From Gekko japonicus (Eukaryota): 64,000 nt of DNA. The notes under the pieces are model-generated. The model was given only the letters and a program-made list of their open reading frames with translations. It did no database searches and had not been told where the DNA came from. Below, piece by piece: positions 54 through 35,232 of the stretch. The stretch lies in assembly GCF_001447785.1 (NCBI RefSeq), contig NW_015165830.1:2535303-2599302 (forward strand). Reading direction: 5' to 3'. A program made the translations under genes and the position numbers. Numbering within the stretch: the first letter of the stretch is position 1; each line of letters starts with the position of its first letter.

Positions 54-206
54 CAGTGTTTCCTCTAAGTACAAGGTCGTTAACAGTTTTTTAGCCTCCG
101 GCTCATACATTTTTGTCTTAATTCAGGAAAGATGCCTCCAGAGCAAACTAATTTATGCAGTAGCCAAATTGCTCACTCATAGCTTTAATGCCAGTCGCTT
201 ACAAAG
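54..206 (+). mobile_element. Truncated copy of the ~206-bp hAT MITE family (CAGTGTTCCCTCTAAG termini)
   Basis: Starts cagtgtttcctctaag; internal ttagcctccggctcatacatttttgtctta...gagcaaactaatttatgcagtagccaaattgctc is shared with the copies at 1638, 36861 and 51573; right end missing. Confidence 0.75.
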
Positions 207-335
207 GAGCATCCCGGGATGCTCCTTTGGGGGAGAGCCTGGAAAGGAACATCACAGGAAGAGGTGGGGTTTTGGTGCAGTGTGCTGGAAGTGACATCAT
301 CGGAACGGGAAGTGACATCACTTGCCATTTGACCT

Positions 336-920
336 GGAAGTGACATCACAGGAAGTGACATCACAGGAAGTGACATCACAGGAAGTGACATCACAGGAAG
401 TGACATCACAGGAAGTGACATCACAGGAAGTGACATCACAGGAAGTGACATCACAGGAAGTGACATCACAGGAAGTGACATCACAGGAAGTGACATCACA
501 GGAAGTGACATCACAGGAAGTGACATCACAGGAAGTGACATCACAGGAAGTGACATCACAGGAAGTGACATCACAGGAAGTGACATCACAGGAAGTGACA
601 TCACAGGAAGTGACATCACAGGAAGTGACATCACAGGAAGTGACATCACAGGAAGTGACATCACAGGAAGTGACATCACAGGAAGTGACATCACAGGAAG
701 TGACATCACAGGAAGTGACATCACAGGAAGTGACATCACAGGAAGTGACATCACAGGAAGTGACATCACAGGAAGTGACATCACAGGAAGTGACATCACA
801 GGAAGTGACATCACAGGAAGTGATTGACCTGGAAGTGACATCACAGGAAGTGACATCACAGGAAGTGACATCACAGGAAGTGACATCACAGGAAGTGACA
901 TCACAGGAAGTGACATCACA
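336..920. repeat. Minisatellite, 39 x 15 bp (GGAAGTGACATCACA): 32 perfect units, 1 variant (816-830), 6 perfect units
   Basis: Directly visible; source of the repetitive SLPVM/DVTSC/EVTSQ ORFs; single precursor units at 287-300 and 308-321. Confidence 0.98.
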
Positions 921-1005
921 AAAGTCTCCTGGCTCCACCCCCAAAGTCTCCTGGCTCCACCCCCAAAGTCCTCAGATATTTCCGAATTTGGATTTGGCAA
1001 CCCTA
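921..1005. mobile_element. Right end of a non-autonomous DNA transposon (TGGCAACCCTA terminus, hAT/Blackjack-like) with a 22-bp duplication
   Basis: aaagtctcctggctccaccccc twice, then ...gatttggcaacccta; the same terminus occurs at 43343-43353 and 49808-49818. Confidence 0.6.
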
Positions 1006-1982: not shown

Positions 1983-2111
1983 GTAGAGCAGGCAGCAACA
2001 GGGCTTCTGGCCCTTGGCTTGAAAAAAGGTGACCGACTAGGAATGTGGGGTCCGAACAAGTACGAATGGACCCTAATGCAATTCGCCACAGCTCATGCAG
2101 GAATCATCCTG
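1983..2111 (+). CDS. ACSF2: ACSF2 internal coding exon ([43 protein letters not shown])
   Basis: ccag|GTA...CTG|gtaag; 129 nt, phase 0/0; matches the ACSF2 AMP-binding domain segment [13 protein letters not shown]. Confidence 0.95.
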
Positions 2112-3145
2112 GTAAGTTGTTGTTGTTGTTTTTAATCCAAGGGCTGCCTACAGATGGGGAAGGGAGCCTGGATATGTAAAAAATGACCAGCCCCCAAAGA
2201 GGCTGGCCAGTCAGCCTGTTTCAAATGCCCCCTTTTCACCATCCTCTATCTTCCCCATCTACCCCCTCTCCATCCTTGAGCCCCCTCCTCCTCCTCCTCT
2301 CATAGCATAGTCCTGAGAAAAGCAGTTCCTTTCACCTGTTGCAGTTCCTCTGCCTGCTAATGAGCTGAGCATGTTTCCTTAGCTTGGTGCCATGTAAAAC
2401 ACTTCATGTGCTCAGGGCTTGTTGGGGCTGCTTATGCTCCTGGTGCTACCCCAGGGGGTGCTGGGTGGGTATGAAGTGAAGTTGTTTTGTTCCCCCCCCC
2501 CCGTCTGTAGCCCCTGTGGACTCTTCCTTCATCTCTGCTTTGTGTAGCACAGGTCAGTTTTCTTCCCTCCCTCAATTTCCTTCCTGACTCTTCATGTACC
2601 CAGATCAACTGGGTTGCACGGGCTGCTCCCAACCTCCTCCCCAGCTGATGTAGAGGCTGGTCTCCCTTCGTGCTTTCAGCTGGCTCAACCACAAAAAGCA
2701 CATAGGGAGAAAAGGTACCACACAGTGCTTCCAACCTGCAGTACTCAGCTAATGAAAGGCACAGCCCACTTGTTTCTCTCTGCAGGCTGCTGGATTAGTA
2801 GCCCACCCCCAGCAGAGCCTGCAAGTAATAGAATGGGGGCAACTTTACATACTGGTAAATTTTCATGTGAGTTGATGATGACACCCACACCCCTTTGTAA
2901 AGCCAAAAAAGTAAAAAAAGATTGCCTTCCTTTTGAGTAATATGGTATTAAAGTGTTTGCATTTTATAAAAAGTAATTGCATTCTTTGTATAGAGAGGAA
3001 TGATCTGGCTTTTCTTTTCCTCATGAAAAGAAACACAAAAAGTTGCATACTTTCCCACCAGTATGCATTGGTCCAACAAAAGGGAGTCTCCGACCAATTC
3101 CACACTGACATTGTTGCCACTCGTTTTTCCCTATTGCTTTGGTTC

Positions 3146-3416
3146 CAGTTTGGTGTAGTGGTTAAGTGTGCGGACTCTAATCTGGGAGAACCGGGTTTGA
3201 TTCCCCACTCCTCCACTTGCAGCTGCTGGATGACCTTGGGCAAGCCATAGTTCTATCAGAGCTGTTCTCTCAAGGGCATTTCTGAAAAGAGCTCTCTCAG
3301 CCCCACTTACCTCACAGGGTGTCTGTTGTGGGGAGGGGAAGGGAAAGGAGTTTGTAAGCCACTGTGAGACTCCGAATGAAGGGCGGGGTATAAATCCAAT
3401 CCCTTCTTCTTCTTCT
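3146..3416 (+). mobile_element. tRNA-derived SINE (Squam3/Ther1-like) with (TTC)n tail
   Basis: A-box tggtgtagtggt, B-box-like ggtttgattcc, core ctctctcagccccac...cctcacagggtg, tail tataaatccaat(cttc)n; 4 similar copies in the window. Confidence 0.85.
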
Positions 3417-3531
3417 CCCCCCTCCCTTTTTCCACAGGTGCTTTGCTCCCTCTGGGACTACTAGAGAGAGCAAATACTTTTTTGGGGGGGACCCTGAAGC
3501 AATAGGGACAAACAAATGACATAAATATCAG

Positions 3532-3899
3532 CAGGGCTTTTTTGGTAGAAAAAGCCCAGCAGGAACTCATTAGCATAATAGGCCACACCCAACAGCAGAA
3601 ACTCATTAGCATTTTAGGCCCCCCCCTGACAGCACACCTCATTAGCACATTATGCCACCCCCCCATGCTGTCCCTTGGCTTGCCCGGGCAAGCCGTCCCT
3701 TGGACAGGCTGGGGAAGGCATGGGGAGGTATTTAAATGCCTCCCCAATGCTTCCAGCCCCCCCCCGGCCCATCCGTTTCAGATTTGCCAGGGGGGGGTCA
3801 CTCTCCAGGCCTTCCCTCTGTAGCCACGCATGCAGAGGTTTTGGCTGCAGTAGGTCTGGCCAACTCTGGAGCCAGCTGGAACTCGGTTCCGGTGCATTC
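3532..3899 (+). mobile_element. hAT-like MITE family (CAGGGCTTTTTT terminus); right end lost in an assembly gap
   Basis: Homologous to the full copy at 53975-54352. Confidence 0.8.
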
Positions 3900-4101
3900 N
3901 NNNNNNNNNNNNNNNNNNNCAGTGTGGAATTGGTCTCCATCTAAGACAGCTAGATCTGAGACCAGTAGCTCCTTAGAGACCAACAAGATTTTCAGGGTGT
4001 AAGCTTTTGAGAATGCAAGCTCCCTTTGTCAGGTAGCACTTGAATCTAACTGTTCTACTGCAGACCAACACAGCAACCCTCTGATACTATCCATCTAAGA
4101 C

Positions 4102-4619
4102 TAGGTATGGGAACAAACCAAACCACAAAGCTAAATTCGTCATGAATGTTGCCGTTTGTGGTTCACAAACAGAAATTCGTGACAGGTCTACCATCACGAA
4201 CTTCCATGAACTTTCAAAGCAGTTTGTGGTGGTTTGTGGTGGTGCATGGATAGAGCAGAAAGCAGGGGTTTACAGTCCCTTTTAAACCCTGCTTTCTGTT
4301 CCCTGTGAAAGCTGCAAATAGAGCTGAGCAGCCGGGAGGTGCTCCCCACCTCTCTGCTGTTTCGGGCTGCATTCTGCAGTCCCATTAAAGTTTAACAGGT
4401 CTACAGAAGACAGTCCAAAACAGCTGTGGGGAGCAGGCTGGTCCCAGTCGCTCAGCTGTTTTTGGCTTTTTGCAAACCCTGTTTAAAGGGACTGCGGTCC
4501 CTTTCAATGGGGTTTGCAGGGCCAGAAACCACGGACTGGTTCAGTTCGCAAATGAACCTCCCAGTTCGATCTGGTTTGTGGTTCAGTTCATGGTTTGGCC
4601 CGGTTCGTGCCCATCCCTA
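4102..4619. mobile_element. hAT (Ac-like TAGGGATG terminus) non-autonomous element, 8-bp TSD tctaagac
   Basis: taggtatgggaacaaacc ... ggttcgtgcccatcccta; tctaagac at 4094-4101 and 4620-4627. Confidence 0.85.
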
Positions 4620-4969
4620 TCTAAGACTGATTTTGTAAGTGTCACTTGCAGTGCTTTTGTGTTTCTCTTCTCTATTGGTGATCATGCACAAAGGACAGAA
4701 ATATACTTTTAAATTTGTGTGTAAAATGTTATAGATTGATGCAAGAAAGTGGATATACAATTGCATTCTGGTGTGTCTTCAATTTTTGTGTTATCTTTGA
4801 ACACACAAATGCATTTTTGGTGCTCAGCCACCATTTTTTTCATAGATGTACAAGCATAATCCCATTATGAATGGGGTTTCTAACATTGGCCAAATTTGCA
4901 TGCTTCATTTTACAAACTCAGTAATATAGGATCTCTGACTTCTCGACCCAGCCTATCATTGTGTTACAG

Positions 4970-5388
4970 CAGAGGTCCCTAACCTTTTCAATCCTGTGGG
5001 AGCCTTTAGAATTTTGAGAGAGGGTAGTGAGCACTGCCCAAGAATGGGTGATACAGGAGGTGCAGCCAGATCTACAATGGAGCCAAATGCAATGCTTCTC
5101 TTCTTGCTTTGCAAAAGAATTTCAGAAGGGGAATAAAAAGAAGCAAAAGAAAGCCCAAGGGGAGAGGGACAAACATGAGGAGGAATAAAAAGAAGGAAAG
5201 CCTGAAGGGGGAATGAAACCACACACAGACTAAGGAAGGCCTGGGTGCTTACCAGTGTTCCTGATCCTCCAGTAGTTGTGGCTGTTGTTGTAACAGTGAA
5301 AAACCTCATTTGAATGAGGGCAGCCTGGTTTACAATGGCCCTGCCCACTTTCTAAAAAGCTCAGCCGAAGTCACATTGGGGAACCCTG
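4970..5388 (+). mobile_element. hAT-Charlie-like non-autonomous element
   Basis: cagaggtccctaaccttt ... ttggggaaccctg termini; related to the element at 13011; no clear TSD. Confidence 0.55.
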
Positions 5389-5452
5389 TCTTTCAACACA
5401 CATTTTGAGGATAAAATATTTGATTCCTTTTGCCATTTCTTCATTTTTCCAG

Positions 5453-5506
5453 GTTTCTGTGAACCCAGCATATCAAGCTAATGAGCTGGATTTTGTGCTG
5501 AAAAAG
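5453..5506 (+). CDS. ACSF2: ACSF2 coding exon (VSVNPAYQANELDFVLKK)
   Basis: tttttccag|GTT...AAG|gtatg; 54 nt, phase 0/0; VNPAY motif of ACSF2. Confidence 0.95.
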
Positions 5507-6249
5507 GTATGAAAAACCTACTGCAGTCACAGATTTTTGCAGTCTCTACAGCATTTCTGAAAGTGCTGGATGATTTGGCTATATATAGTGTTTGTTAGAG
5601 TAACTTGGTTTGGAAAGAGGTATAGAAAAATGAAACTCAGGTGAGCAGTAGGGAANNNNNNNNNNGCTAAAGTGTTTTGAGCATTTTAATATAGAAAAAA
5701 AAGATGATTAGGGGGTACAGGAGAGAAAGATTTACTTCACACTCCCACAAATGCGTGCTGGAATTTCTCAGCTACAAATTCCAGTATGGTAAGCCATGTT
5801 GTCCTATTTCAGCAAAAAGAAAATAAGAGATTAACAGGTTTCTTGAAATGAGTCCGCTTCACCAGATGTGTGAAGTGACTGAGACTTACATAGAAGAAAA
5901 AAACGTTGGGAAGAAAGGCTTAAAAGACCTTGTTTATGACATTTCTATGCAGAGTTTTCAGGAATAATCACTATGCTTATCTAAGTCCTTTTGAATTTTG
6001 TACAGAAGTGTCANNNNNNNNNNNNNNNNNNNNNNNNNNNNNNNNNNNNNNNNNNNNNNNNNNNNNNNNNNNNNNNNNNNNNNNNNNNNNNNNNNNNNNN
6101 NNNNNNNNNNNNNNNNNNNNNNNNNNNNNNNNNNNNNNNNNNNNNNNNNNNNNNNNNNATCTTGCCCGAGAACTCACTTCATGCATCTGATAAAGCAGGC
6201 TCAGGTCGATGAAAACTTATGTTGCAATACATTTTTAGTTTTGGTCTTC

Positions 6250-6620
6250 AGATGAAGTCCACTGGCAGCTGATGGACAAAAACACTTTTGCAGAATTCAA
6301 TACCTTATGATGTGGTGATGGCCATTATCTTAGATGACTATTTTTAAAGGAGCGAATTTAGAGTCCAGTGTCATTTAAAGGATTAGACAAATTCATCGGA
6401 GGATTGGTCCATCAGTGGCTATTACCGTGATACCAAAATGGAACTTCTTTGTTCAGAGATCGTATGCCTGCAAGTTCCAGATGCTGGAGACAAGCCACAG
6501 TAGAAGGCTGCCTCTATCATGCCGTATGTATGCTCTTCCCAGGGACAACTGGCTGGCAAATGTTGGGAGACAGACTGCTAGACTAAGTAGACATATGTTC
6601 AAACCATGCAAAGCAAAAGC
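6250..6620 (+). mobile_element. Old CR1 LINE 3' fragment
   Basis: gatgtggtgatggcc...ggattagacaaattcat resembles the CR1 3' ends at 43354-44278. Confidence 0.55.
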
Positions 6621-7598
6621 TTTTGCAATAGTTTGTATAGGACAGTACTTTGTATTTACAACCAGGAGGAAGGGAATTATTCTATACAGATCAAGCCTGA
6701 TCATCCACATCTAATTACTTGAATTGTCTGGGTTTACTGAATGACAATATTCTTTACATGCCCGAAGTCTTCCCAAGGAGGGCTCTTGAAGTGGAAAAGT
6801 CTGCAATGTCTCTTGATGTAGAAAAGTGAGAGGCTGCTGAGTAAAGACTAACAATCTAATAGCAAAATACTGTGCACTAGGAAAGACCGTATATTATCTG
6901 TAGTGCTAGGTGAAACCAAAGGTCTAGAAAAGGGAAATTCCACTCTGAGGTGTCTCTCATAGTAAAGACCGACATTAGCATGTGTTAGCAGAGTCTCCAG
7001 GTAGCATTTATCTGTCTCTACAGAGAGACACATCATTTCATGAGGCTGTATGAGCAGAACACAAATCTACATTAAAGGGAAGATCAAATGTTTGGTTCCA
7101 GTCAAGGCTGTGGTCTGTTTTGGCACAGCCAAATTATTTTCAGTGGAGGCAGAGACTCAGTGTCCCGTTTGGGAATCCTGCACCAGAAATAAAACTACAA
7201 TAAGCTGTGAGCAATCTGGCACAAGACTCCTGCTAGACCAGATGAAATATATATCTAGTAATATATTCTGTTTCCCAAGCTGTCTCTCCAGATGTTTTTG
7301 GAGCCAGCCAGGTCGGGATTCCACAAATGAGTCCAGAAGTACTTACTTTTGTTTGTCCTGAGCTATTGCCAATCAATTTCACTGGGTGATTGAGAACACA
7401 ATGCACAAAAGGGGACAATTTGTGATGCTAATACAAAGGGTTTTCCTTGATTATAACCAAACAGGTAAAAAAAGATTAAGGGTGAACTCAGGTTACTGAG
7501 CCCCCCCCCTGAAATTTGCTGAGAGTCATTCCACATGTCCCCAAGTTGTGATACAGCAGTCATTAACCCATTGAGTAGCTAATGCTGTGTCCCAAGAG

Positions 7599-8253
7599 CA
7601 GGTCTGTAGCCAGGATTTATTAAATGGGGGGGGGCTTTAAATAATTCAGGGGGCACTGAAATTAAAATAAAAAGGGTTTGAATCAGGGCCTTCCAAAGAG
7701 TTGACTTCCAGCCCCAACTGAGTCCAGGTGCACTCTGGGGGGGGGACAGTTTTGAAGTTCCCCTTCCCTTGCCCCCGCTGCTCAGACACAGGGCTGAAAC
7801 ATGAGTTGTCATCCTGGAGCCCCGGGATGAAGGAGCACGCCTGCCTAGTCTGTGTGTGGACACCCCGCCACCAGGGGGCCCGCTCCCTGCTCCAGAAAGA
7901 GGGTCTGCAGCCCCCACTGCGCCTCACCGTTGTGGTGGGCGGCAGGTGGGCGGGCAGGCAGGGGTGCTCGCTCACTCTGTCCAGCATGGGAGGGACTGGC
8001 TGGGGCTGGAGACAGTGAGGCGGCCACCAGGAGCAGCCTGGCCAGGGGCGGAGTGGAGCACCATGGGGTAAGGCAAGGAGAGGGAGGAGGGCTGCACTGG
8101 GCCACTGGGCACTCTGCCCACTGGCCAGCCAGTGAGCTCATCTCATCTGGGGCCCGCCTGGTTGCCTGCCTGCCCAGGGTAGTAAGTTGGGGGGGCTCTG
8201 ATGGAAAGTCGTGGGGCTGGGCCCAGAAATGATCCAATGTAGCTATGGGCCTG
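7599..8253. mobile_element. GC-rich hAT non-autonomous element, 8-bp TSD cccaagag
   Basis: caggtctgtagc ... gctatgggcctg imperfect TIRs; cccaagag at 7591-7598 and 8254-8261. Confidence 0.85.
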
Positions 8254-9599
8254 CCCAAGAGAGACAGAGAGCAAAACAAAATCCCAATATTTAATGTGGA
8301 AATTAGTAATTCAAAGCTTAACTATACAATACATTGTGTATGGGCTCACTCCATGTCTACCGTGAGTCCTGTCAACCAGACATGCAATAGGACATGAAAC
8401 TTAATTCTCAATTATGCAAAGGCACACTTCAGATTGGGGCTAAGGTGGTCAGGGAGACGAAGTTTATACTCCTCCCACTAGTTCCCCAGACTGAAATGGC
8501 TCCCAGGAGTTTCCATTTCCCCCTTTAATGAAACTAACATGTATCGATAGATTTTCATGTAAATTTCCCCAGCAGGGCAAATGGTGCCTCTCCAGGGTTC
8601 TTTCTATTCATAAAAATTGTATATGTGGAAAGATTTAAGTTTCCAGGCACCATGGTCCTGATCTGCCCAAAAACAATGTATTGTGTAGTTAGGCCCTCAT
8701 TTCCCTAAGCAATTTTGATCGTTGCCAGGCAGGGAAGATAGCATGGACTAGCCCAATCCAGTTTCTTTTGTTTAGTAGAGAGAGATTAAAACTCTTGTGT
8801 ATTTTGTGAATAAAATTAATCCTGCCAGGATGAAAAGGCCCTTTGTGCTTGTTTGTCTTGTTTAGCTTTAGAGCTCAGAACCTCAAATTCAAATACAATT
8901 CAGAGATCAAATACAAATGTGGCAGTTCATGTTCCCGTGCTATGTGCTGGCTGGCCTCCTTGCTTTCCCGCATGCTGTGGGAAACACTTTGGAAACTATA
9001 AGAAAGTCAGAATCAGTCCTAAATAAGCCTTTTGTTGAACAGGCAAATTTGTATAGTTCCAGTTTGACCTGTGAAATTTGTATCGTTTTTTTAGTTCATT
9101 TATGACTTCTTCCCATCAAGTTTTTGTTTAAACCAAGCATTTAATATGCACTGTAATGGTGCAATACTACTCAGTTATACCCTCCTAAACCCATTGACTT
9201 CAATGGATTTAGAGGGATACAATCTAAACGATCTGATATTTCCTAGCTTTAGAGTGCACACTTTTCACTTAGTTTTATTTTAAAATTTATTTAAAACACT
9301 TGTAATACACTGTTTTCTGGAAAAAGAGAGAATGGCTTACAGAGAATTAAGATTCGAAAACATGCCAATATGTTAAAACAACTACCCATTCAAATAACAT
9401 AAGTAATTAAAACACAGGACCTAAATAAAAACTCATCATAAAGTCAGACTTTACACTTACTACTTAACCACCCTTGAAAGCCCTCTTGAGCAGAGGACCA
9501 GTGAAATAAATGTACTAGACAGAACAACAATAGGATGGCAAATGAGGGGCATGTGTGGCGATTAAGGGCCCGAGGGAGGAGAGGGTTGCTGGAGATGTA

Positions 9600-10042
9600 A
9601 ACACATTATAGGTGTCTTTATACCAATGCTCTCTGAGCCAAGATGAGGGAGCTGGAGTGCTTGGTGCTTAATGCAAATTCAGATATAGTAGGTATTTCAG
9701 AATAAGGAAAATCTATGGGATACAATCATTCCTGCGTATAAACTCTATAGGCAGGACAGGGAGGGATGGGTTGGGGGGCGGTATTATGTTGTGTATCAAA
9801 GACGGCATAGAATCCAACAAGTTAGGAAACATCTGGGGAATTAACTCCCCAACAGACATGGGTGGAAATACTGGGCCCTAAGGGTTACTTAAATGTGGAG
9901 GTGTAATATCCCCCACCTGATCAAACTGTTGAGGCTGATCTTGAGATGGAGAAGGAAATAAGGGAGGTGACTAAAGGAAATAATGCTATTATACTATATT
10001 ATATTATACTATTATAATATTATACTATATATTATAGGCGAC
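9600..10042 (+). mobile_element. CR1 ORF2 endonuclease N-terminal fragment with an internal AT-rich microsatellite (9987-10035)
   Basis: Colinear with 40010-40430 (gagctggagtgcttg, gtaggtatttcagaa, cacctgatcaaa). Confidence 0.7.
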
Positions 10043-10198
10043 TACCTAACTGGCCTCTATGGTCGCATCGGCCCTGTTACCACACCTACCCCAGCGAGTC
10101 ATGAGGAATTCTGCTCACTGTTTTCTCTGCAGTATACTATTTTATAACCTGTTTTCCAAGATACTTTCTGTATCCTGATGTCCCTTCTGTTTCTTTAG

Positions 10199-10317
10199 GT
10201 TGGCTGCAAAGCAATGGTGTTTCCCACGCAATTTAAAACACAGAAATACTATGAGATCTTGAAACAAGTTTGCCCAGAGCTGGGACTGTCTAATCCTGGA
10301 GCACTAAAAAGCAAGAA
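10199..10317 (+). CDS. ACSF2: ACSF2 coding exon (VGCKAMVFPTQFKTQKYYEILKQVCPELGLSNPGALKSK)
   Basis: ttctttag|GTT...AAG AA|gtaag; 119 nt, phase 0/2. Confidence 0.95.
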
Positions 10318-10859
10318 GTAAGTGCTACTTGTGCCTCACCTCACAGGCCACTTCCAAGCCCAGTTCTTATGCACTGTTTTAACCATGGTAAGGTGCCACA
10401 TTTGTCAGGCATGCATCAAAGTAAATGTCAAGGTGAGGGTGATCAGGAGCCATGTGCTAAAGGGAAATTTGATGTTAGTAAAGCTTGCTCCAGTTCTGGC
10501 ACTGTTTCACTGCTTGCCACATTTTCTTCTATGCAGTTTTCAATAGTGCAGAAGACCTAAGTCAGTAAAGACTGGATATGTGAAAAATATGTAAATGTAT
10601 CCAGAACCACAGACCCATGAGAATGTTACAGAAAATATGCATAGCTGGAAACACAGATCTTAAAACCAAATTGTATTCAACACTCTCAAACTTCCACAAG
10701 TTAAACAAGTATATAAAACTAATCTGTATAATTGTATCAAGCGGTTCCCATAGCAGTAGAATTTCAGAGAGTTTGGTCCACACCCCAGCAGCCTGTTCCC
10801 AGACTATATTCCTGTTTTCTCTTTTCCTCTGCTATTGACCATTCTGTCCACTGTATCAG

Positions 10860-11022
10860 CCTACCAGAGCTTTCAGTTGTAATCACCCTGGACTCCAAGC
10901 TTCCTGGCGCATTCCAGATGGCTGATGTGATGCAGGCTGGAGACAGCAGCCACAAGAAGCAGCTGCAGGACATACGGAAGACGCTGGTCTGCCAAGAGCC
11001 CATCAACATCCAGTTCACTTCG
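10860..11022 (+). CDS. ACSF2: ACSF2 coding exon (LPELSVVITLDSKLPG...CQEPINIQFTS)
   Basis: atcag|C CTA...ACT TCG|gtggg; 163 nt, phase 2/0; begins the AMP-binding signature IQFTSGTTG.PKG. Confidence 0.95.
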
Positions 11023-11235
11023 GTGGGTACAGCATGCGCCATTTTGTCACCATTTGTATTCAGAAAATACAAGCGGTGATGTCAGGAATAGCATACTGTG
11101 TGCCGTAAGAACTTAGAATTTAGAAGCTAAAAAATAGTTGTACAAACCACATACATTTGGTTTATATTTATTTTGGGGGGACAATTTCTTTTCTTTTAGA
11201 ATAGTTGGGGTTTGCAGAATCTGGAATATCTTGAG

Positions 11236-11720
11236 ATGGGTGTGTGTTAAGTGCTGTGAAGTCACTTCCAGTTTGTAGCAACCCTATGAATTGACATAGA
11301 GTTGGACTCGACTGTGCGGCTGAACAACAACAACAACATGAATTAACAACCTCCAAAACATCCGAATTTTGAGAGCCTTGGTCAAGTCTTGCAAACTGAA
11401 GACCATGGCTTCCTTTATTGAGTCATTCCATCTCATGCTGGGTCTTCCTCTTTTCCTGCTGCCTTCAACTTTTCCCAGTATTTGTGTCTTTTCTAGTGAG
11501 TCTTGTCTTCTCATAATGTGACCAAGTTAAATAGCCTCAGTTTAGTCATTTGAGCTTCTAGGGAGAGTTCACTGATTTGTCTTTTTGGTGGTCCGCAGTA
11601 TCCATAAAACTTTCATCCAACACAGCTTTTAAAATGAATCTATTTTCTTCCAGTCAGTTTTCTTCATTGTCCAACTTTCACACCTGTATATAGTAATAGG
11701 AATACTAAGGCATGAATTAG
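11236..11720 (-). mobile_element. RTE/BovB-clade LINE 3' fragment
   Basis: Minus ORF MRRQDSLEKTQILGKVEGSRKRGRPSMRWNDSI is the typical RTE ORF2 C-terminus. Confidence 0.8.
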
Positions 11721-11997
11721 GAAGAAGAAGATATTGGATTTATACCCTGCCTTTCACTACCCAAAGGTGTCTCAGAGCGGCTTACAAACTCCTTTCCCTT
11801 CCCCTCCCCACAACAGACACCCTGTGAGGTAGGTGGGGCTGAAAGAGCTCTGACAGAAACTGCTCTTTTTCAAGGACAGCTCTTATTAGAGCTATGGCTT
11901 GCCCAAGGTCATCCAGCCAGGTGCAAGTGGAGGAGTGGGGAATCAAACTCGGTTCTCCCAGATTAGAGTCCGCGCACTTAACCACTACACCAAACTG
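11721..11997 (-). mobile_element. Squam3-like tRNA-derived SINE
   Basis: Reverse complement of the 3146-3416 family; gaagaagaag tail. Confidence 0.85.
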
Positions 11998-12589
11998 TGT
12001 AGGATGGGTCTTAAATGGAGCTATAAAAGGCACAGAAGTTCCATTTACAAATCTTACCAGGATTTGTCCAGATTTTCTTTTGTGTCTCAACATTTTCACG
12101 GATTAGTTGACATATGTCTTCATGCCATAGACATTTTGGGCTAGTAGAAGCTTCCCAAGAAGCAAGAGCAAGCAGCTTACCATTTGGTTACTTGGGAACC
12201 CTGTGGTATATCCTTCTACCTTTGAGAAATTTAAAACAGGGCCTTCTGGCCTGGTAGGCAAAGCGGCAAGTCTGATCATAGGCCTGGTCTACACATGCAG
12301 TAGAGTTAGGTAGTAGAATCCTAAGGCACTAGAATGGGCTGTACCACTTCAGACTATAGGTAGGNNNNNNNNNNNNNNNNNNNNNNNNNNNNNNNNCCTG
12401 CTAATAAACCTTTAGTATGTTTAGGGTGAAAGGATTGATGTGCAGGGCAGGTCTCCTGTTTTTTTGAACCACAAGTAGGTCTTAGGCTGTATTTTTAACA
12501 CAATGTTATGTGTTGGTTTTAAAGCACTGCTTGTAAGCATGGAACAGGGTGGGATTTCAATAAATAAATGCCTTTTCTCTTTCCTTCAG

Positions 12590-12685
12590 GGAACAACAGG
12601 AAGCCCCAAAGGGGCCACACTTTCACACAGCAACATTGTGAATAATGCAAACCTGATTGGTATAAGGCTGGGAGTCGATAAAATG
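12590..12685 (+). CDS. ACSF2: ACSF2 coding exon (GTTGSPKGATLSHSNIVNNANLIGIRLGVDKM)
   Basis: ttccttcag|GGA...ATG|gtaaa; 96 nt; P-loop TSGTTGSPKG of adenylate-forming enzymes. Confidence 0.96.
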
Positions 12686-13010
12686 GTAAAACAACTTAAT
12701 GTGTTGGTCAGTGTTGAAATCAGAGATTCTGACTAAAGAATAATGTCTCCTAAATAATTCATATATTTGTATGTTACTTTTATCCTCACTGAGGAGCCAA
12801 AGTGGCTTACAGCATCAGTCTCCCTAACTGTCTCCATTTTGTCCTCACAACAATAACCCTGTCAGTTGGGTTAGGTTGAGAAAGAGTGGCTGGCCCACGG
12901 TCACCCAACGAGCTTCCATGGCAGAGTAGGGTTCTTTATTATTGGATTTATATCCCACCCTCCCTGAAGGCTCCTAGCTAGATCCTTGTCCAGCCCACTT
13001 ATCACTACCC

Positions 13011-13980
13011 CAGGGGTCTTCAACCTTTTTAAGCTTGTGGGCACCTTTGGAATTCTGTGGTGGGCCCAACCACAAAATGGCTGCTGTAGGAGGTAGAAAC
13101 AGCCACAAATTGTCAGAGAACGAACTTAATGTATAACTGTAACTCTTCAACATTTCAGGCAGAAGCTGTGTTTAACAGGATGCCTTTTAAAATTAACATA
13201 TTATTGTCAAGCTCAGGCCTCACTTGTCATAGAATGTTGTCTAGCCAAACTCATGCTCTGTTGCATTAGGGGCTAACTACTTTCTCAGTCATGCTTATTT
13301 CACTGTTTTTGTCTACAAGTATTCTGGGCTTCACTGCTGTTTATCTTCTCTGCTAGGAAGGGGGGGAGTGGATGTGTGTGTGCATGTCTGCTTAAGCTTG
13401 AATACTGCCAGCTTGTAGCAGTCTGTGAGACCCTGGGAAGTGTATGATCTCAGTGTCCAACACGACCTTGTAACGTGGAGAGCTTCTAGATAATGTAACT
13501 GTTAGTTTGCAGGTGCTGGGGACGGCCATAAGGGCAAGCTTGGATCTTTGGTGGGCTGGATGAGAATACTGATTGGGTGGTTGGCATGGGGGGAGATGTT
13601 CTGCTTGCAGTATAGGGTCAAAACTGGCATCCGGAGGCCAGTTCCGACACAGAATCTGTCTATGCTTGGAATCTCTCTACCTCTCAATAAACATATCTTG
13701 CTGCTACAAGAGTGTTGTGGGAGTGATTGCATCCAGGACTTGACAATTATTTAAAAATGCTTTCTTGCATATACACAAGTTACCTTACACACAGAGAAGA
13801 TCTTTGTGCTGTGGTGGCAGCCACTGCTGAAGCAACATTTTTTAAAAATCTACGTAGCCAATTAGATTTCCAATGGCCATTCAGAAGTCCTGATGGGCAG
13901 AAGCCCCACCCACTTTCTAAAAGCACTTGGCAGGTGCCAGGAAAGGTGTCACCATGGATGGCATGCTGGAAACTGCCACT
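13011..13980 (+). mobile_element. hAT-Charlie-like element interrupted by a solo LTR
   Basis: caggggtcttcaaccttttt start as at 4970; homology resumes after 13750; right boundary approximate. Confidence 0.55.
13205..13745 (+). mobile_element. Solo LTR, 541 bp, 5-bp TSD attat
   Basis: TGTCAAG...CTTGACA inverted ends, AATAAA near the 3' end, attat at 13200-13204 and 13746-13750. Confidence 0.85.
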
Positions 13981-14412
13981 CTATGCCATGCTGACTGTCA
14001 TGCTATCTGAACATCTTCAGTATTTTCTCTATGAATTGAGGATTCGTAAATCTTATCTTTCCCCCACACAAAGTGCAGCAATAATGGTTGTGTACATGCC
14101 ACGAGGCTCTAGTTTTCTAGTTGCTTGGCTTATACAACTAACTTGAGTGCCTCATATTCATATCCTGTAGAAATTACAGATTGCCATGTTGATTTCTGCA
14201 TATGATTGTATAGTAATGAAATTTTATTATTATCAGAGAGGGATAGGTACTGAATAAGTATAGCTCTTCAATGTGCATTTTTCTCCTGATTTCCCATTCA
14301 TGCAACCCCAGTTCTTTTCCATTCACCTCTTGGTGGCCCCGCTTAATCTCTGTCATAATAAGATGTAGGAATGGTTAACACCAACACTGGAAGGTGAATC
14401 TATGATGACTAT

Positions 14413-14800
14413 TGTAGTGTATTCCAAAGCTGCCATGGAATGCATGATGTATGTGAAACATCTCATTGATTTGTAATGTTAAGCTTCATCCTGGGCTAGG
14501 ATCCAAATACATCCAATAGTATTGCTAGCCCAGGAAGTAACAAGCCAATCACTTCGCAGCAAGCTCCCTGAGCGGGAATGGCCGTGATTGGTCCTTATGT
14601 GAACAACCTTATTGGTTGGTATTTGTACAGTGGGTGTGGCTACATTAGCCGGGAATGTTTAAAAGCAGGACAGCAGCAATGTAAAGGCTGTTCTGGCTAT
14701 CAGATGTTGATCCGTGTTGGAGTTGTGTTTGAGTTGAAGAATAAAGTTGTGTTCTTGCTGAATCACTCTCCGACTGCTTTGTTAAGCGAGCGACTTAACA
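14413..14800 (+). mobile_element. Solo LTR, 388 bp, 5-bp TSD actat
   Basis: TG...CA ends, several CCAAT/ATTGG boxes, tttaaaa, AATAAA (~14739); actat at 14408-14412 and 14801-14805. Confidence 0.8.
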
Positions 14801-14822
14801 ACTATGTTTTCCTTGATCCTAG

Positions 14823-14971
14823 CAAGCCCGCTGTTGTCTTCCTGTTCCTCTCTACCACTGCCTGGGCTCTGTGGCAGGGTGCATGGTGATGGCAATTCAT
14901 GGTGTCTGTCTTGTCTTCCCATCTTTAAGTTTTGAGGCTAAAGCTTCACTGAAGGCATTGGAACAGGAGAA
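14823..14971 (+). CDS. ACSF2: ACSF2 coding exon (QARCCLPVPLYHCLGSVAGCMVMAIHG...KALEQE)
   Basis: gatcctag|CAA...GAG AA|gtaag; 149 nt, phase 0/2; PLYHCLGSV motif. Confidence 0.95.
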
Positions 14972-15587
14972 GTAAGTGACTCAAACATTAAAGGTTTGAA
15001 TACTGTCAGGAACAACACTCATTTTGTGCTTCTGGTGCCACTCATCCTGGGCTTCTGTGCTGTTCATGTCTCTTTTGAGGCACAATGATCTTTCCATTGA
15101 CCAGTGGCAAAAGAGATACCTGATGCTTGTTTTCTCTGTCCCCTATGAATGTAGTAACAAATCACAAATGGATGCATACTGTGTAACGTCTAAGGCTTGT
15201 GACTGGGATTTGATACGATATGGAAACTATTGTGCCTCAGTAAGGATGTGACAGCCTTGAAACTAGGACCCAGCAGTTCCTTCAGAAAAATAAAAATAAA
15301 AAGAACAGTTGCCTGTAACTATCCTCCCTTTGCCCATGTGCTTATGGAAAGATAGTTGGATTTGAATGTCATGAAATCACTCTGAATTTTTACAGTGTTT
15401 AGTTATTTCAGGCATTTGCTGCTTGCCCCAGAGCAAGCAGCAGAGCAGCTGATATGCAGCCAGTGAACATTTTTAAAACAGAAAAAGCACCTTGTTTACC
15501 CTAGGTGTTCTCCTCTCTGGGAGCATCCAAAAAAGCAAGAGAGGGTAAATAGTAGTGCTAGTCTAGTTATGCCACTTCATAGTCCTT

Positions 15588-15750
15588 AAAGGTAAAGGTA
15601 AAGGTTCCCTTGCTCGAAAGCCAGTCGAATCCGACCCTAGGGTTGCGGTGCTCATCTCTGTTTCAAAGCCGAAGAGCCAGCACTGTCCGAAGACATTTCC
15701 GTGGTCATGTGGCCGGCATGACTAAACACCAAGGCACACGGAACGCTGTT
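15588..15750 (-). mobile_element. Sauria (Squam1) SINE 3' part
   Basis: (ACCTTT)n tail on the minus strand; homologous to 37474-37738. Confidence 0.8.
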
Positions 15751-16212
15751 CAATCTAATTTTGGTGTGATACTGCTGGACTCTGTCAATAGATTCCATTC
15801 ATATCCGGTTGTTGCTCTCCCCCCCCCCCCCCCCCCCCCAGCTCCAAATCAGGCCTTTATTTCTACCACAGGTTTGAATATAGTGTAGCTTCAGATTGTC
15901 TTCATAGTATCAGACAGCACCATATCAGAGGGTTCGGGGTTCTTCTTGTATACTTCTGGAAACGAATAAAGAGTTGAAGGTTTTTTGGAGATGGGCTGGG
16001 TCAGTTGATGAGATGTGTACGGAACCTGAATGCTCATTTGCCTTTACACTTTGGAAANNNNNNNNNNNNNNNNNNNNNNNNNNNNNNNNNNNNNNNNNNN
16101 AGGCAACATTGAAATATTATACCCAAACTCCAGATTGGGTGGAGGACATACTTGTGCTCACGTGCGTGTCCCAGCAAACTGTAATTTGTTTGTCTTTATT
16201 CTTCCTTTGAAG

Positions 16213-16304
16213 ATGCACCCATGTATATGGCACTCCAACCATGTACATAGATATGCTAGGACAGCCTGACTTTGATACCTATGATCTCTCAAGTGTTCGG
16301 GGAG
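16213..16304 (+). CDS. ACSF2: ACSF2 coding exon ([30 protein letters not shown])
   Basis: ctttgaag|A TGC...GGA G|gtaag; 92 nt, phase 2/1; YGTPTM motif. Confidence 0.95.
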
Positions 16305-17120
16305 GTAAGTGTGAGGATACTAAGCCTTTAAGTGGGTAGAGCTTAACATAGATCCTACAGGGCAGATGAGCAGAGTCATGGCTGAAGTAGCAAGTCAGTC
16401 TGCTCTTTCTAATAGTGATTTCTAAGTTATGTAAATAGTCAGTAAAGTTTATCTTATTTTTCATCCTGAAAGTTATTCATAAAGAATGTGACAGTAAGCA
16501 CAGAATCAGACATTTCGATTGATTTTGAAAATTCAGCTGCTTAAATGTCATTTCTGCTAACCAATTAATGTAAATTTGAAGACATTGATATGTGTTGATT
16601 AGTACATTACCCAAACCACAATGCATGTGCCTTTTTGAGCTGTTGAAGGAAGTGTGAAATGGCTAGCAATCTAACAAACATAAGCTACCATTTATGATTA
16701 GAAAGAAAGATTGTCTATAAGTTTAACTTTTTTCAGTCTCTATTACAGGAACTAAAACTTGAACCAAAATAGCTTTCAAAATAAGGAAGTATAACCATAT
16801 AGCACAGTCTCACTATTTAAAATCTCCCTTCACCCAACTAAAATTAGTCCTGACTGATCAAAGAGTTACAGCTCAAACAATTTCAATGATCAGAAGGTTG
16901 CAGGGATGGGAAGCTGCCACCATGCCTGTCACTTTAAGATCTTAGGCAAAATCTGATAGACCCACCTCTGCTACTGTCTGTCATGCACACACATCCTTCA
17001 TCCAACTCAATAGGCAACCTAGCCCAATTGAAAGCCAACCTACACATGACGCAGTCCTTTTGCACCTGAGCCTTCTGAGGAGAACGCAGGCTCTCTTAAG
17101 TATTTGGAAAACTGGAAAGA

Positions 17121-17223
17121 GGGAAGTTGCATATACCATGTAGAGGCAAAGAAGAGTTGCATATAACTACATGTAGAGGCAAAGGGAAGTTGCATATAAC
17201 TACATGTAGAGGCAAAGAAGAGT
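17121..17223. repeat. Three tandem 30-33-bp units (..agttgcatataactacatgtagaggcaaa)
   Basis: Units at 17121-17150, 17151-17183 and 17184-17216. Confidence 0.9.
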
Positions 17224-17235
17224 AGAGTAGAAGAG

Positions 17236-17428
17236 TAAACCATAGAGTTTTCCCTCGGATGACCGTGGCCCCACCCCAAGCGTGCCCGGCGTGGCCGCAT
17301 CACTTCCGGGTGACGTGGACGTTACGTACTTTGGGGGTGGGGTTCCCCCGGGGCCCAATCTGTGCCAGCGGGGAACAGGCCTCTGGGGTGGGGGTTTCCC
17401 CGCCACCCGGGGGGACTTGGGAAGCCTA
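17236..17428. mobile_element. CpG-rich DNA-transposon remnant (Blackjack-like end)
   Basis: aaccatagagtttt...catcacttccgggtgacgt...cttgggaagccta, a degenerate TGGCAACCCTA-type end. Confidence 0.45.
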
Positions 17429-17961
17429 CTTATCAATGTTGCTAAAATGATCTCCCCCACCCCCCGCTAATGACAACTGGAAAAGGCAGTACTAGTAACT
17501 CCTCAGAGTTTTATCAGTTTTTTTATAATCATGCCCCCTTGCATGGATATGTGCTGTTTTCTGCTCTGGCTGGTGCTATATCAATTTGGTGATGCCTTTT
17601 GGAGGAGAATCCCTATCCTCCTCTCTGGGGCTTTATGATTCACTCTTGTGTTCCTGCTGTGACTAGAGACACTGCCTGAAACTTCGACATAGGAAAAGCA
17701 TGGGAACCAGGGTGAGTCTCATGACAGGATAGCACTGTTAGGCAGCTAAACCCTTTCTTGTTGGCTTAAGCTGATGATTAAGGACACAAATGTGTGTTAT
17801 GTATTCTTTCCACTTACACTTTGGTTTACACAGGCTGTATTTCTCCATGCAGTTGCTCTTAAAATGTTTTTGAGTACATGATCAATGAACAGTAGCTTCC
17901 TTACCCCAAGTGGCATTTTAAGAACAATTGAAATAATGGGAATAGTAGGCCTATGTGCACA

Positions 17962-18149
17962 TGAAGCTGCCTTACGCTGATTCAAACCTCTGGTCTATCG
18001 AGATTAGCACTTTCTGCTCTTAACTGTTGGCTCTTCAGGGTCTCAGGTGGTGGTCTTTCATATCACCTGATACTTTTTAACTGGAGATACCAGGGATTGA
18101 GCCTGGGACCTTATGCTTGAAAAGCAGGTGCTCTGCCACTGAGCCATGG
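17962..18149 (-). mobile_element. tRNA-derived SINE with CR1-like tail (Squam2-like)
   Basis: Minus strand: tggctcagtggcagagc (A box) ... ggtcccaggctcaatccc (B box); family name is an inference. Confidence 0.65.
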
Positions 18150-18469
18150 GCACACCCTGTCTTGTTTGCTGAGATCTGAATAATCAGATTCTCCATTATG
18201 TTTCTTCACTTATTTGTATGAAAGAGCAGTAAAGTGGAGGGAAGCAATCAGCAGGATGTGTTTGTGTGAACCAGCCCCCAAGTAAATTGATGGCAAGCAA
18301 TCCTCATCCAAAACGTGTGTTTCTTTTTTGTTGTTAATCATTTAAGGTTTCCAGGATTCCCCCCCTGCCCCTCTAGTTGTTGCTGAAAGCACAAGGAGGA
18401 CAATGTTTTCTTCTTCATTATGTTGTATGCTAATACACTCCTACCTATATGTATGGACTGGTAACTTCC

Positions 18470-18710
18470 ATTTCATTGTATCTGAAGAAGTGTGTGTGCA
18501 CACAAAAGCTTATACCTTGAATAGAACTCTCTTGGTCTTAAAGGTATCACTGGGCTCAAACTTTGTTCCAATGTAGATCCAGGTAATCAGCTGTGTTGGT
18601 CTGAAGCAGTAGAACAAATGTAGACCCCAGTGGCACCTTTAAGACCAACAAAGGTGTATTCAAGGTATGAGCTTTCGTGTACATGCACACTTCTTCAGAT
18701 ACATTGAAAT
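18470..18710. mobile_element. Penelope-like terminal repeats in inverted arrangement
   Basis: 18470-18570 and 18585-18710 are reverse complements (ttggtcttaaaggt / acctttaagaccaa); each carries a hammerhead-like core. Confidence 0.75.
18665..18702 (-). ncRNA. Minimal type I hammerhead ribozyme motif, intact core
   Basis: Minus strand: GUAU-CUGAAGA-A-GUGUG(CAUG)UACAC-GAAA-GC-UC-AUAC; stem I GUAU/AUAC, stem II, palindromic AGCU stem III. Confidence 0.7.
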
Positions 18711-19142
18711 GGGACGTAAGGTTCAATCTTACAGACAGGCTGAACAGTAAATCAACATGTAACATGATGAAGATGTTTTAAGATATGCAAAACCAGAATT
18801 AAATAACAAGCAAAGGTTATAAGGTCAACAGTTGTAAAGCAATAAATATGTTAAAATAAGTCTGAGACTCTCCATTCACTCCCAGAGCGTGTTCCAATGT
18901 TTTATTCTGGTTTTATTCCTACGTCTACCAGCATGTGGCAGCAGATGTTACGTGCACTGTGATGCTGCATTCTGTATCCATCCTTATATCAAAATGAATG
19001 GAAGTCGTTCAAAAGAAGTCTTTGCAAACAGACATCATGCTAACAAATTGTTGATGTTATGTTAATAATAATATAATTATCAGTGTTAATTAAAAATGAA
19101 AGCTGACAGCCGTGAGCTGCTAGCAACAACGAACAAACTGCG

Positions 19143-19312
19143 CTTTAAGACCAACAAAGTTTTATTCAAGCTGTAAGCTTTCGTGTATCTGAGGAAGTGT
19201 GCTTGCATATGAAAGCTTATACCTTGAATAAAACTTTGTTGAACTTAAAGGTGCCACTGGACTCAGACTTGGGTTCTGCTCCTTCAGACCAACGTGGCTA
19301 CCCACCTGAATT
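19143..19312. mobile_element. Second Penelope-like inverted repeat remnant
   Basis: ctttaagaccaacaaagttttattcaag ... cttgaataaaactttgttgaacttaaagg inverted pair. Confidence 0.7.
19185..19222 (+). ncRNA. Minimal type I hammerhead ribozyme motif, sense to the ACSF2 pre-mRNA
   Basis: GUAU-CUGAGGA-A-GUGUG(CUUG)CAUAU-GAAA-GC-UU-AUAC. Confidence 0.6.
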
Positions 19313-19537
19313 TATCAAATTCATTGAGACTGTTTATACTGATGCCAACTTGGTTGTGTCAAAAACTCAGTTAACTTGGGAAATTTCCAGGCTCAGATTG
19401 AGGTTTACCTTTTAATGGAAGAATAAGCATAAAGACCATACCACATATTGAAAATGTAAAATGATAATTTAAAAAGGGCCCTTTAGAAGGTTGCAAAGAA
19501 GACATCTTTCTTTTTGTTTTGTTTTTTTCATTTTCAG

Positions 19538-19614
19538 GAATCATTGCAGGGTCACCAGCACCTCCTGAAATTATTAAGAAGATCATGAAGAAGATGAACA
19601 TGTGGGAAATGGTG
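19538..19614 (+). CDS. ACSF2: ACSF2 coding exon (GIIAGSPAPPEIIKKIMKKMNMWEMV); last ACSF2 exon found in the window
   Basis: ttttcag|GA ATC...GTG|gtaag; 77 nt, phase 1/0; AGSPAPPE motif. Confidence 0.95.
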
Positions 19615-21389
19615 GTAAGTCAATTTCCATCTTTCCTTTAGTGCAATGATCTTTGGTGGACTTTCTTTGTGTGCCTCTCATGGTCAGAAATATTGTGTGA
19701 AGGTCAGGACTTCAGTGACTTAGAAGGATGTAGCTCTACTTAGGATTGCACTGTAGATCTCCCTCCCAAGGGAAGTTTGCTTCATTCTGTTTCTGGTGGT
19801 GTTTTGGCATGACCACTCCAGGCAAAATTGGAGCTTTTAGGCGCTACTTTTATTTTTGGCTTCTGTTCTTTGCTATGGGATTCTTGGGGCTTAAACAGAT
19901 GAACTTTGGGAGTTCTGTGTCCAGAGATCCCTGCATTTTTATAAGCTCAGTTTTCACGTGTGCAGAAGCCTGATTTTGATTGGGGCTGTGGCATGAGGGC
20001 AGGCCTTTTAAAGCCTTCCTCCTCACTGTTTTCCTGATCTAAAATGGCCCCAAGGGGTTGCTTTGGGGACAAATGTAGGTATATCTGTATCTGTACTGGT
20101 GTGTTTCCTAAGTGGGGGAATGAGGAGATCCTTGGGGTGATTTTAGAATCTAGAAATGGTGTGTGGGGAGGGTCTGGACTGGGCCACTTCAGGCCTGATA
20201 ACTTTAGACGCTCTGAGGCTCTGGAATTGCAGCTCACAGCACACATCTGCAGTGGCTCTCAGCTTGCATTCTACTGTTGTTTTGGTTTTGTTTGGATTTT
20301 AATTGCCATTGTTTGTTTTTTATTGGCTATCGTCAGGCTCCTTGGGGATGTTATAAAAGTTAGAAAGTGGGATGTAAATATTTTCATAAATAAATAAAGA
20401 ATAGCATAAGGATTTGGACTCCCTATTTGATTTGTAAATTTCCACTAAAAATACCAAGTCACACATCTAGTTTGGGAAATGAATATCCAGCTGAACTCTG
20501 AAGGAATGCAGGAAATTCTAGGAACAGCAACAGATAACTTGGGGCGGGGGGACATGGGACAGATACTGTACAAATTGTCAACGTTTTGGAGAATTTTCTT
20601 GAAACTCAAGCTGAGCATTGTTTACATTTATTTTCTGGTTATACTGGACTTTTCCCCCCGTCCATCGGAATATGCTACTTCAAATTTTCATGCCTCAGTC
20701 CCATAAGGATAAGTCCTTACTAGGAAAAGTGCTTAGATGTTTTCATGCAAATCCAGCCAAGTTGGTGGCGTTCATACTTGCATTGAGCCCCCCCCCCCCC
20801 CCCCCCGCGCGGGCAGATACAAATACATACTTCTGTTTACTTTTCTTGCTTCTGAGTGTGTGAGTTTCTAATAGAGCAATCCTGGGTGGGGGGAATCATT
20901 ATAGGGAGCCAACTGACCCCAACACCAGTGTAAGTATGGGTTACATTGGAACAAGGGTGGTTTATCCTGGAATAGAGCACCAGTGGCACCAAGTTCCACT
21001 GGCGCAGGAGTGCCGCAGCAGCATGCCAGCAGAGGAATGGCATGAACCCTGCTGCTGGCATAGATGTGGGCATGCCTGGGGGTGTGGAAGCAGTTAGGCA
21101 GCTTCCGAAGCATTTTCAGCATGGGAATGCATCCCTGGGCAGGCACAAAGTTGTGCCGGCAAAAATGGTGTTGCAGCCCATTGTCAGTCATTGTAACTCC
21201 ACATTCACTCCCCCCCCACACACCTGCCGCCATGCCCACAGGACCCCAAACAGCTCAGGGTACTGACTCAGGTCATGCTCCCCTGCTCCAGCTGTGCTTC
21301 CCCTCAGGACCCAGTCACAGTGCCCCCCCCCCAAATGGTTTCAGGAGGATGCCCCTGAATTCTGTAGGTAGGGCATGAAAAGCTGTCTG

Positions 21390-34446: not shown

Positions 34447-35232
34447 CTTTTCAAGGCTCATGTTCTCCAGGCTGAGGGTCTCCATATATCGCCCAAAAGA
34501 TTGGAAGGCGAAATCAGGGATGACCTTCATAGGGTTGTATGAGAGCTTCAGGTCCTCCACCACCCTTAGTTTACTCATTGCAGCCTGTGGGTATGTGCTT
34601 AGTTGGTTCTTATCCAGGTGGAAGATAGCTAAGTTTTCCACATCATCCAGAGCCCCAGGCTGGATGGAGGAGATGGAATTATCTGAAAGATAGAGCCAGC
34701 GAAGGTCCTTAGCACCATGGAAGGCTCCTGCTCTCAACTCTCGGAGCTTGTTGCTACCCAGCTGCAGGATGAAAAGGTTAATCAACGGTGAGAGGACCCC
34801 CTTGGGCAGGTCAGAGATCTTGTTGTGGTCTAGGTAGAGGTAGGTAAGTTCTGTCAGGTCATCAAAGGCTCCTGGCTTTATGATGCTGATGTCATTATTG
34901 GACAAATAGAGGTAAACCAGTTGCTTCAGGCCCCGGAAGGCCCCACTGGAGATCTCCTTGATGTGGGAATGTTGAAGATGGAGGGAAACAAGATTTTTCA
35001 TCTCCCTAAAGCCATTGGGTGGCAGGACAGGGAAGTTGTTCCTTTGCAGATTGAGGAGCCTTGTCTGCTCAGCCACCTTAGGGATCTTTCTCAGTCCAAC
35101 GTTATCACAGATGACATGCTGCAGGTCTCCTCCATGGCAGTGACAATTTTGGGGACATGCTTGAAGAATGGGCAGGAGACACAGCAGTAAGCCGAAGAGC
35201 TTGATTAAGAAGCCTGACCGGTCCATGTCCAT
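34447..35232 (-). CDS. CHAD: Chondroadherin coding exon 1 (signal peptide, LRRNT CPQNCHC..C, LRRs); 262 codons; alternative ATG at 35226
   Basis: [18 protein letters not shown]...[13 protein letters not shown]; donor GAA AAG|gtaaga; spliced CDS 363 aa; nesting antisense in an ACSF2 intron matches known ACSF2/CHAD synteny. Confidence 0.97.

Follow-up and report, generated by a model that had tools for sequence, protein, structure and literature searches.

The tandem array at positions 336 to 920 of the stretch of Gekko japonicus DNA analyzed here (64 kb in full, hereafter the window) probably arose, in the absence of selection, by expansion of a short motif close to the end of a decayed non-autonomous DNA transposon; the 39 units of the assembly are likely an unreliable measure of its length. 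It is best described as a minisatellite embedded in a transposon, its length being uncertain. Loci of this kind are known, and this one is probably ordinary.

Tandem Repeats Finder reports the array on the forward strand with a period of 15, 39.0 copies and a score of 1133, by far the highest among its 16 rows in the window, and cutting the interval into 15-mers gives 38 of 39 units identical to GGAAGTGACATCACA, which agrees with the 38 identical units and one variant of the original prediction. With a head-to-tail unit in the 10- to 100-bp range, the array is a minisatellite. The lone variant, GGAAGTGATTGACCT, departs from the others in its last seven bases: it consists of the unit’s first 8 nt followed by a copy of the 7-nt left flank, with no microhomology at the join. 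The locus therefore reads as a first block of flank, 32 units and 8 nt and a second block of flank and 6 units, and deleting 329 to 823 (495 nt) in silico leaves a clean array of flank, six units and right flank with no scar.

336–920, forward strand: 15-bp minisatellite, 39 units as assembled, no CpG (repeat finder and unit count).
816–830, forward strand: variant unit 33 (direct reading of the sequence).
329–335, forward strand: 7-nt left flank of the array, recurring only at 824 within the interval 300–1000 that was searched.
824–920, forward strand: second block, made of the 7-nt flank copy and six units, 97 nt (sequence comparison).

The units comprise 570 nt without any substitution, an outcome with a probability of 0.003 even at 1% divergence. 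Since the MITE copies nearby are 8 to 19% diverged, the array is very young, homogenized or made by the assembler.

The evidence for a transposon origin comes from the surroundings of the array, which on the minus strand lies 85 nt inward of a terminus, a 22-bp doublet separating the two. The features on which this reading draws are as follows.

995–1005, reverse strand: terminus TAGGGTTGCCA, oriented toward the array, of a MITE-like repeat with dispersed copies (repeat comparison).
921–970, forward strand: 22-bp repeat, 2.3 copies, part of the element end (repeat finder).
248–322, forward strand: three dispersed, partly degenerate copies of the unit (250–261, 287–299 and 308–321), likely seeds, in what is presumably the element interior.
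202–229, no strand: perfect 28-bp palindrome where the upstream MITE homology stops.
54–207, forward strand: decayed copy of a second MITE family, 14 to 19% diverged from three full copies with 8-bp target duplications.
49411–49818, forward strand: sibling element bounded by two inverted termini, which carries TGATGTCA at +82 from its end and contains a 27-bp tandem repeat of its own.
17250–17428, reverse strand: end of a more distant element, in which an intact CCGGAAGTGA and an ACGTCA lie some 113 to 130 nt inside.
43264–43353, reverse strand: further element end with the same terminus and no unit-like motif in its first 200 nt.

Matches to the 11-nt terminus with at most one mismatch number six in the window, against a shuffle mean of 1.98, and six were reached in 1 of 100 shuffles, although two of the six (at 11276 and 51114) look like tails of another repeat, which weakens that count. 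Positions 49411 and 49818 form an inverted pair that bounds an element of 408 nt, and the ends at 1005, 49411 and 43353 share, besides the terminus, a G-rich block resembling GG-ACTTTGGGGG 33 to 46 nt inside. The unit core TGATGTCA first occurs at +88 from the end at the array and at +82 in the sibling at 49411, a coincidence of offsets expected by chance in about 0.5% of cases (apart from the array, the two strands, 128 kb together, hold 7 occurrences; 21 positions at 4 ends). It is present in only one of the four other ends, and the remaining three examined lack it in their first 200 nt; the end at 17428 has ACGTCA at +113 and its intact CCGGAAGTGA at about +120. Clusters that match the circular unit at 11 of 12 positions or better are concentrated beside the array, with three in 230–335 and seven in the other 63 kb. 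Because this segment has no second copy in the window, we infer, rather than observe, that it belongs to the element.

Short terminal inverted repeats and dispersed copies characterize the family as a whole (the pair 49411/49818 and the single ends at 1005 and 43353), the array-bearing copy itself showing one end. The termini of this family are putatively of hAT type. The host element of the array is nevertheless called MITE-like and not classed as hAT, because the window yielded neither its far end nor a target duplication for it, and no 8-bp target duplication was seen at the one sibling with both ends (0/1); nor was a hAT transposase seen among the window’s open reading frames, of which six translations were scanned with Pfam. 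The neighboring MITE family has terminal inverted repeats and 8-bp target duplications in all three of its full copies (1638, 36861 and 51573), while the copy at 54 lacks a recognizable matching duplication. Other short tandem repeats in such elements lie at 921, 3557, 49569 and 51604.

Several further repeats were recorded in the window. The neighboring MITE, about 200 bp long, is present in four copies (54–207, 1638–1843, 36861–37053 and 51573–51778), the three full ones mutually diverged by 8 to 10%. Elements related to the one that bears the array seem often to contain short tandem repeats, and those of 33 bp (17125–17223) and 27 bp (49569–49639) lie 200 to 300 nt inward of, or inside, such elements. 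A third MITE-like family, with CAGGGCTTTTTT ends, occupies 3532–3899, 48308–48667 and 53975–54351, and its copy at 3532 holds a 36-bp internal tandem repeat (3557–3662). The palindrome at 202–229 may have arisen by templated insertion where an old deletion occurred, or it may mark an assembly join; the repeat tail ahead of position 54 is not taken up again after 1005. Two LINE fragments with endonuclease and reverse transcriptase domains (40129–42429, forward; 59424–62611, reverse) are inverted relative to each other and 80 to 86% alike over several hundred bases each. Fragments resembling an LTR retrotransposon lie at 57900–58837 and 63664–63999, both on the reverse strand, with a Pfam integrase core and, by eye, a zinc-knuckle-like stretch, and are interrupted by other repeats. 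A weak, partial Rfam tRNA match at 18089–18147 on the reverse strand (37 bits) is probably the head of a SINE.

What distinguishes the array is its unit. Read in the context of the array and without gaps, it differs from the published ETS-CRE 16-mer, (C/G)CGGAAGTGACGTCAC, at only 2 of 16 positions (2 and 12), so that 14 of the 16 positions and the exact overlap of the ETS and CRE halves are preserved. Among random tandem 15-mers of the window’s composition, taken in any phase and on either strand, 51 in 3,000,000 come within two mismatches of the 16-mer, whereas a plain GGAAGT core arises in 0.7%; the resemblance to ETS-CRE pointed out in the original prediction is thus real and not due to chance, and it needs explaining. 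The unit was also said to keep an ETS site, and ACAGGAAGTG has indeed served as one in enhancer constructs, according to the available part of that report (PMC5295818).

The two CpGs of the ETS-CRE motif are, in contrast, gone from the array, in which no CpG was counted, as the description of it as CpG depleted had it. The further statement that both CpGs were changed to CpA holds for the CRE half, where position 12 went from CpG to CpA, but not for the ETS half, where position 2 reads ApG at 37 of the 39 sites (C to A, a transversion) and TpG at the remaining 2 (C to T). These two TpG sites are the ones that directly follow the flank 7-mer. As assembled, the array thus contains 37 CAGGAAGT sites, a number that falls to 5 if the six-unit version is the true one. 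The copies in flank context, at 287, 336 and 831, read CTGGAAGT...ACAT, the ETS half having TpG and the CRE half CpA. TpG and CpA are the two products of methyl-CpG deamination, which leaves unexplained the dispersed copy at 308, where C has become G. Since the observed-to-expected CpG ratio is 0.22 over the whole window, CpG loss is the default here; the ratio is 0.31 in the segment 230–335, 0.48 in the sibling element and 0.65 in the end at 17428, which keeps CCGGAAGT. With the window-wide depletion and the ordinary deamination products in the flank copies, the idea that CpGs were lost by design, as a “methylation-proof” platform, finds no support. Judging by the repeat terminus, the sibling element and the degenerate copies in the left flank, the motif was likely inherited from the transposon and its CpGs lost passively.

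These observations suggest a course of events for the proposed transposon origin. The element would have carried several CCGGAAGTGACGTCA-like subterminal motifs, which, after insertion, would have been methylated and would have lost both CpGs by deamination, so that the ETS half was left with TpG and the CRE half with CpA. One decayed copy may then have been duplicated by slippage between similar motifs near by, the new junction creating the CAGGAAGT sites. The occurrence of CATCACAGGAAG in the flank at 250–261 indicates that the CAGGAAG context is perhaps older than the array and not just a product of the junction. The array would have reached at least six units in this way, and a further block of 495 nt would stem from a duplication and expansion that took place very recently or, alternatively, from gap filling at assembly. 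Minisatellites born in transposons are well known, slippage between similar neighbors being a described route (PMC6947457), and hAT elements carry short subterminal repeats (PMC10368747), as far as the available text of these two papers goes. An origin of this kind is compatible with a later function.

How much of the array is real bears on everything that is read into its copy number. It is quite conceivable, if somewhat short of an even chance, that the real locus, or one of its alleles, has about six units and that 329–823 stems from a gap-filling loop joined to an extension from the right side; such inflation would be compatible with the transposon origin. The scar-free excision, the internal join that lacks microhomology and the 570 nt free of substitutions all fit this account. 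The window moreover contains 8 N gaps of 10 to 234 nt, a pattern that seems typical of paired-end scaffolding, and short reads cannot resolve repeats that exceed the read or the k-mer (PMC6868369, available part). Against it, no N lies in or near the array, the nearest gap being at 3900, and duplicated flanks were found at none of the 8 gaps, where the longest shared word measures 6 to 12 nt. Only two other exact local duplications of at least 20 nt (within 1.5 kb) occur outside the array, both in short tandem repeats, so artefacts of this sort are uncommon in the window. In addition, collapse and not inflation is the usual assembly error in the available text of PMC6868369, and young minisatellites can be perfectly homogeneous. 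A locus heterozygous for a long and a short form, or a real recent duplication, could also give the duplicated flank and the blunt join. The gaps lie at 3900, 5656, 6014, 12365, 16058, 25696, 38021 and 38684, and repeat lengths throughout the window need caution. A long-read assembly of Gekko japonicus, with PacBio reads, exists (PMC10776941).

The gene in which the array lies is ACSF2, a fatty-acid gene. The translation of the exon at 10861–11022 (54 residues) is 100% identical to ACSF2 of Gekko japonicus and 89 to 98% identical to that of six other geckos. Eight exons from 1983 to 19617 match ACSF2 residues 98 to 391 exactly, bar residue 198, which falls on a split codon; residues 1 to 97 and 393 to 600 had no credible match within the 64-kb window. 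The array sits in the intron before codon 98, and the next exon begins 1062 nt after its end.

1983–2111, forward strand: internal coding exon of ACSF2, from codon 98, with AG/GT borders (protein match).

A position about 1 kb upstream of an ACSF2 exon had thus been given correctly, but the regulatory link to the gene implied by it does not follow: the exon is internal, and because codons 1 to 97 are not in the window, the annotated start and promoter of ACSF2 lie outside it. The array is accordingly intronic, not in a proximal promoter as expected of ETS-CRE, although an unannotated internal start could exist. Beyond the last ACSF2 exon found (at 19617), and opposite to ACSF2, an exon of a leucine-rich repeat (LRR) protein of secreted type (Pfam LRRNT and LRR_8) occupies 34420–35340 on the reverse strand; it is likely CHAD, nested in ACSF2 as in mammals. 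No ACSF2 exon was found between 19617 and 64000, an intron that would exceed 44 kb, and a GC-rich stretch in it (59%, 22001–24200) holds several overlapping open frames of 130 to 320 codons.

It is unlikely that the array is a real, long, CpG-free ETS/bZIP cluster through which ACSF2 or the nested LRR gene is controlled, be it as a copy-number-dependent enhancer or, above a threshold, as a repressed element. Its two mismatches from ETS-CRE (the 51 in 3,000,000 above) and its 37 CAGGAAGT sites would favor such a role. So would the binding data in the available part of PMC4555227: single changes in the CRE half reduced CREB1-aided binding of GABPA slightly at 8 ng and clearly at a lower dose, ETS variants that alter the CG were often found in GABPA peaks, and a sequence printed as “CAGGTTGT”, probably a misprint for CAGGAAGT, was enhanced about 7-fold by CREB1. 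Precedent comes from the accessible text of PMC13373173, according to which intronic tandem repeats rich in ETS-family motifs can act as copy-number-dependent elements; one of them, the IFNB1-MRE, is an intronic VNTR with 45 PU.1 sites, such repeats being weakly activating at low counts and repressed by MORC3 above 15 motifs.

Several observations weigh on the other side. The double variant in the array falls outside the probe classes of the microarray as listed in the available part of PMC4555227 (single changes, or both CGs kept), where no variant surpassed the CpG form in binding. Of 88,465 CAGGAAGT sites in human A549 cells, GABPA occupied 1406, an enrichment of 8.8-fold against 96-fold for CCGGAAGT (same source). 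The MREs are positionally conserved across mammals (PMC13373173, available part), and the true copy number of the array may be about 6. Adjacent 16-mers in the array overlap by one base. This overlap also leaves without support the argument that the 15-bp period staggers sites around the helix, as does the geometry: the stagger is 154 degrees per unit, yet any period that is not a multiple of 10.5 produces one. The notion of a copy-number-tunable platform keeps its precedent in the intronic ETS-family repeats of PMC13373173, as far as that text is available, while the copy number underlying it is doubtful. ETS proteins could probably bind the naked array in vitro, to judge from its motifs; control of ACSF2 by the array would be a candidate role at most and is not needed to explain the array. 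A broader scheme, in which a gecko MITE-like family with an ETS-CRE motif near its end lost CpGs after insertion and expanded into methylation-insensitive ETS/bZIP clusters that serve as MORC3-type copy-number switches, strikes us as improbable. If it were true, the 39 units would lie above the published threshold of 15 motifs and a six-unit allele below it.

It is similarly improbable that the unit came from a regulatory element of the host, such as an internal promoter or enhancer of ACSF2, with the transposon end as a chance neighbor. The segment 230–335, with its several ETS-CRE-like motifs and no second copy in the window, would suit such a source, but repeat fragments enclose it on both sides, its CpG ratio of 0.31 is unlike that of a CpG-island promoter, and the 8-mer recurs in the sibling element at almost the same distance from the end (+82 versus +88). 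That the array belongs to an exon coding for a pentapeptide-repeat protein is very improbable indeed, for although four of the six frames are open across the unit and the GSDIT frame matches Pfam Pentapeptide with an E value of 1e-27, any 15-nt period yields a five-residue period, the exons of ACSF2 can be explained with no contribution from the array, the EVTSQ word appeared in none of the 150 best matches counted and the indexed search gave no candidate.

We accordingly rejected the Pfam match as a by-product of the 15-nt period. The EVTSQ frame, compared with 1.84 billion representatives, retrieved generic five-residue repeats, with three or more EVTSQ words in none of the best 150; a three-frame profile of the array gave no candidate, and the translated element end gave 26 candidates, none of them scoring. 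Introns being rarely translated in protein sets, such translated searches are weak tests for other arrays. Expansion driven by hairpins was also set aside: eight units fold at −19.2 kcal/mol (z of −3.8 against dinucleotide shuffles), but 217 of 1000 shuffled tandem units do equally well. A prokaryotic or plasmid origin found no backing, two units having 0 matches in prokaryotic genomes and the interval 200–1010 no match in plasmids. No structured RNA was detected at the array, the sole Rfam match in the window being the tRNA-like one at 18089. A full-text literature search with the 13-mer core returned one paper, on an unrelated subject, and a search for published accounts of such a gecko element led to general reviews only; in the literature searched, which leaves out most subscription journals, the locus appears undescribed.

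Most likely, then, the array matters little, as another minisatellite in a dead transposon. It does carry a caution: where a scaffold has gaps, the copy number of a long perfect array should be interpreted only once long reads are at hand. What seems worth keeping is a unit unusually near a real composite ETS-bZIP motif, together with the published threshold of about 15 motifs between weak activation and repression. If the long allele were real and polymorphic, the locus would put that threshold to a natural test, with two states, in an animal other than a mammal, and would illustrate how transposon ends can seed such clusters.

Among known systems, the IFNB1-MRE is, like the array, an intronic tandem repeat with dozens of ETS-family motifs, and, if the assembly is right, the 37 to 39 motifs of the array compare with 35 to 45 in the MORC3-repressed repeats (PMC13373173, available part). 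The array differs in having one motif per 15-nt unit, where the MRE has five per longer unit (same source), and in its overlapping bZIP-like half. With the ETS-CRE promoter motif (PMC3464117 and PMC4555227, each in its available part), the unit shares 14 of 16 positions and the exact ETS-to-CRE overlap; the published motif, however, is defined with two CpGs, conserved and mostly unmethylated in promoters (PMC3464117), of which the array has none, and is a single-copy motif of proximal promoters, not an intronic tandem array. Non-autonomous hAT elements, as portrayed in the accessible text of PMC10368747, have short terminal inverted repeats and motifs repeated near their ends, as does the array-bearing family, and the neighboring MITE family adds to the likeness with its 8-bp target duplications (3/3 full copies), whereas the array-bearing family differs in that no target duplication or transposase was found for it. 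A further parallel lies with the transposon-derived minisatellites borne by Alu, B1, MaLR and MITE elements (PMC6947457, available part), in which, as here, a short unit is amplified within a dispersed repeat with similar copies near by, the unit measures 10 to 100 bp, the copies number fewer than 100 and the location is intronic. What sets the gecko array apart from these is its host, a MITE-like DNA element, and a unit that matches a composite transcription factor motif.
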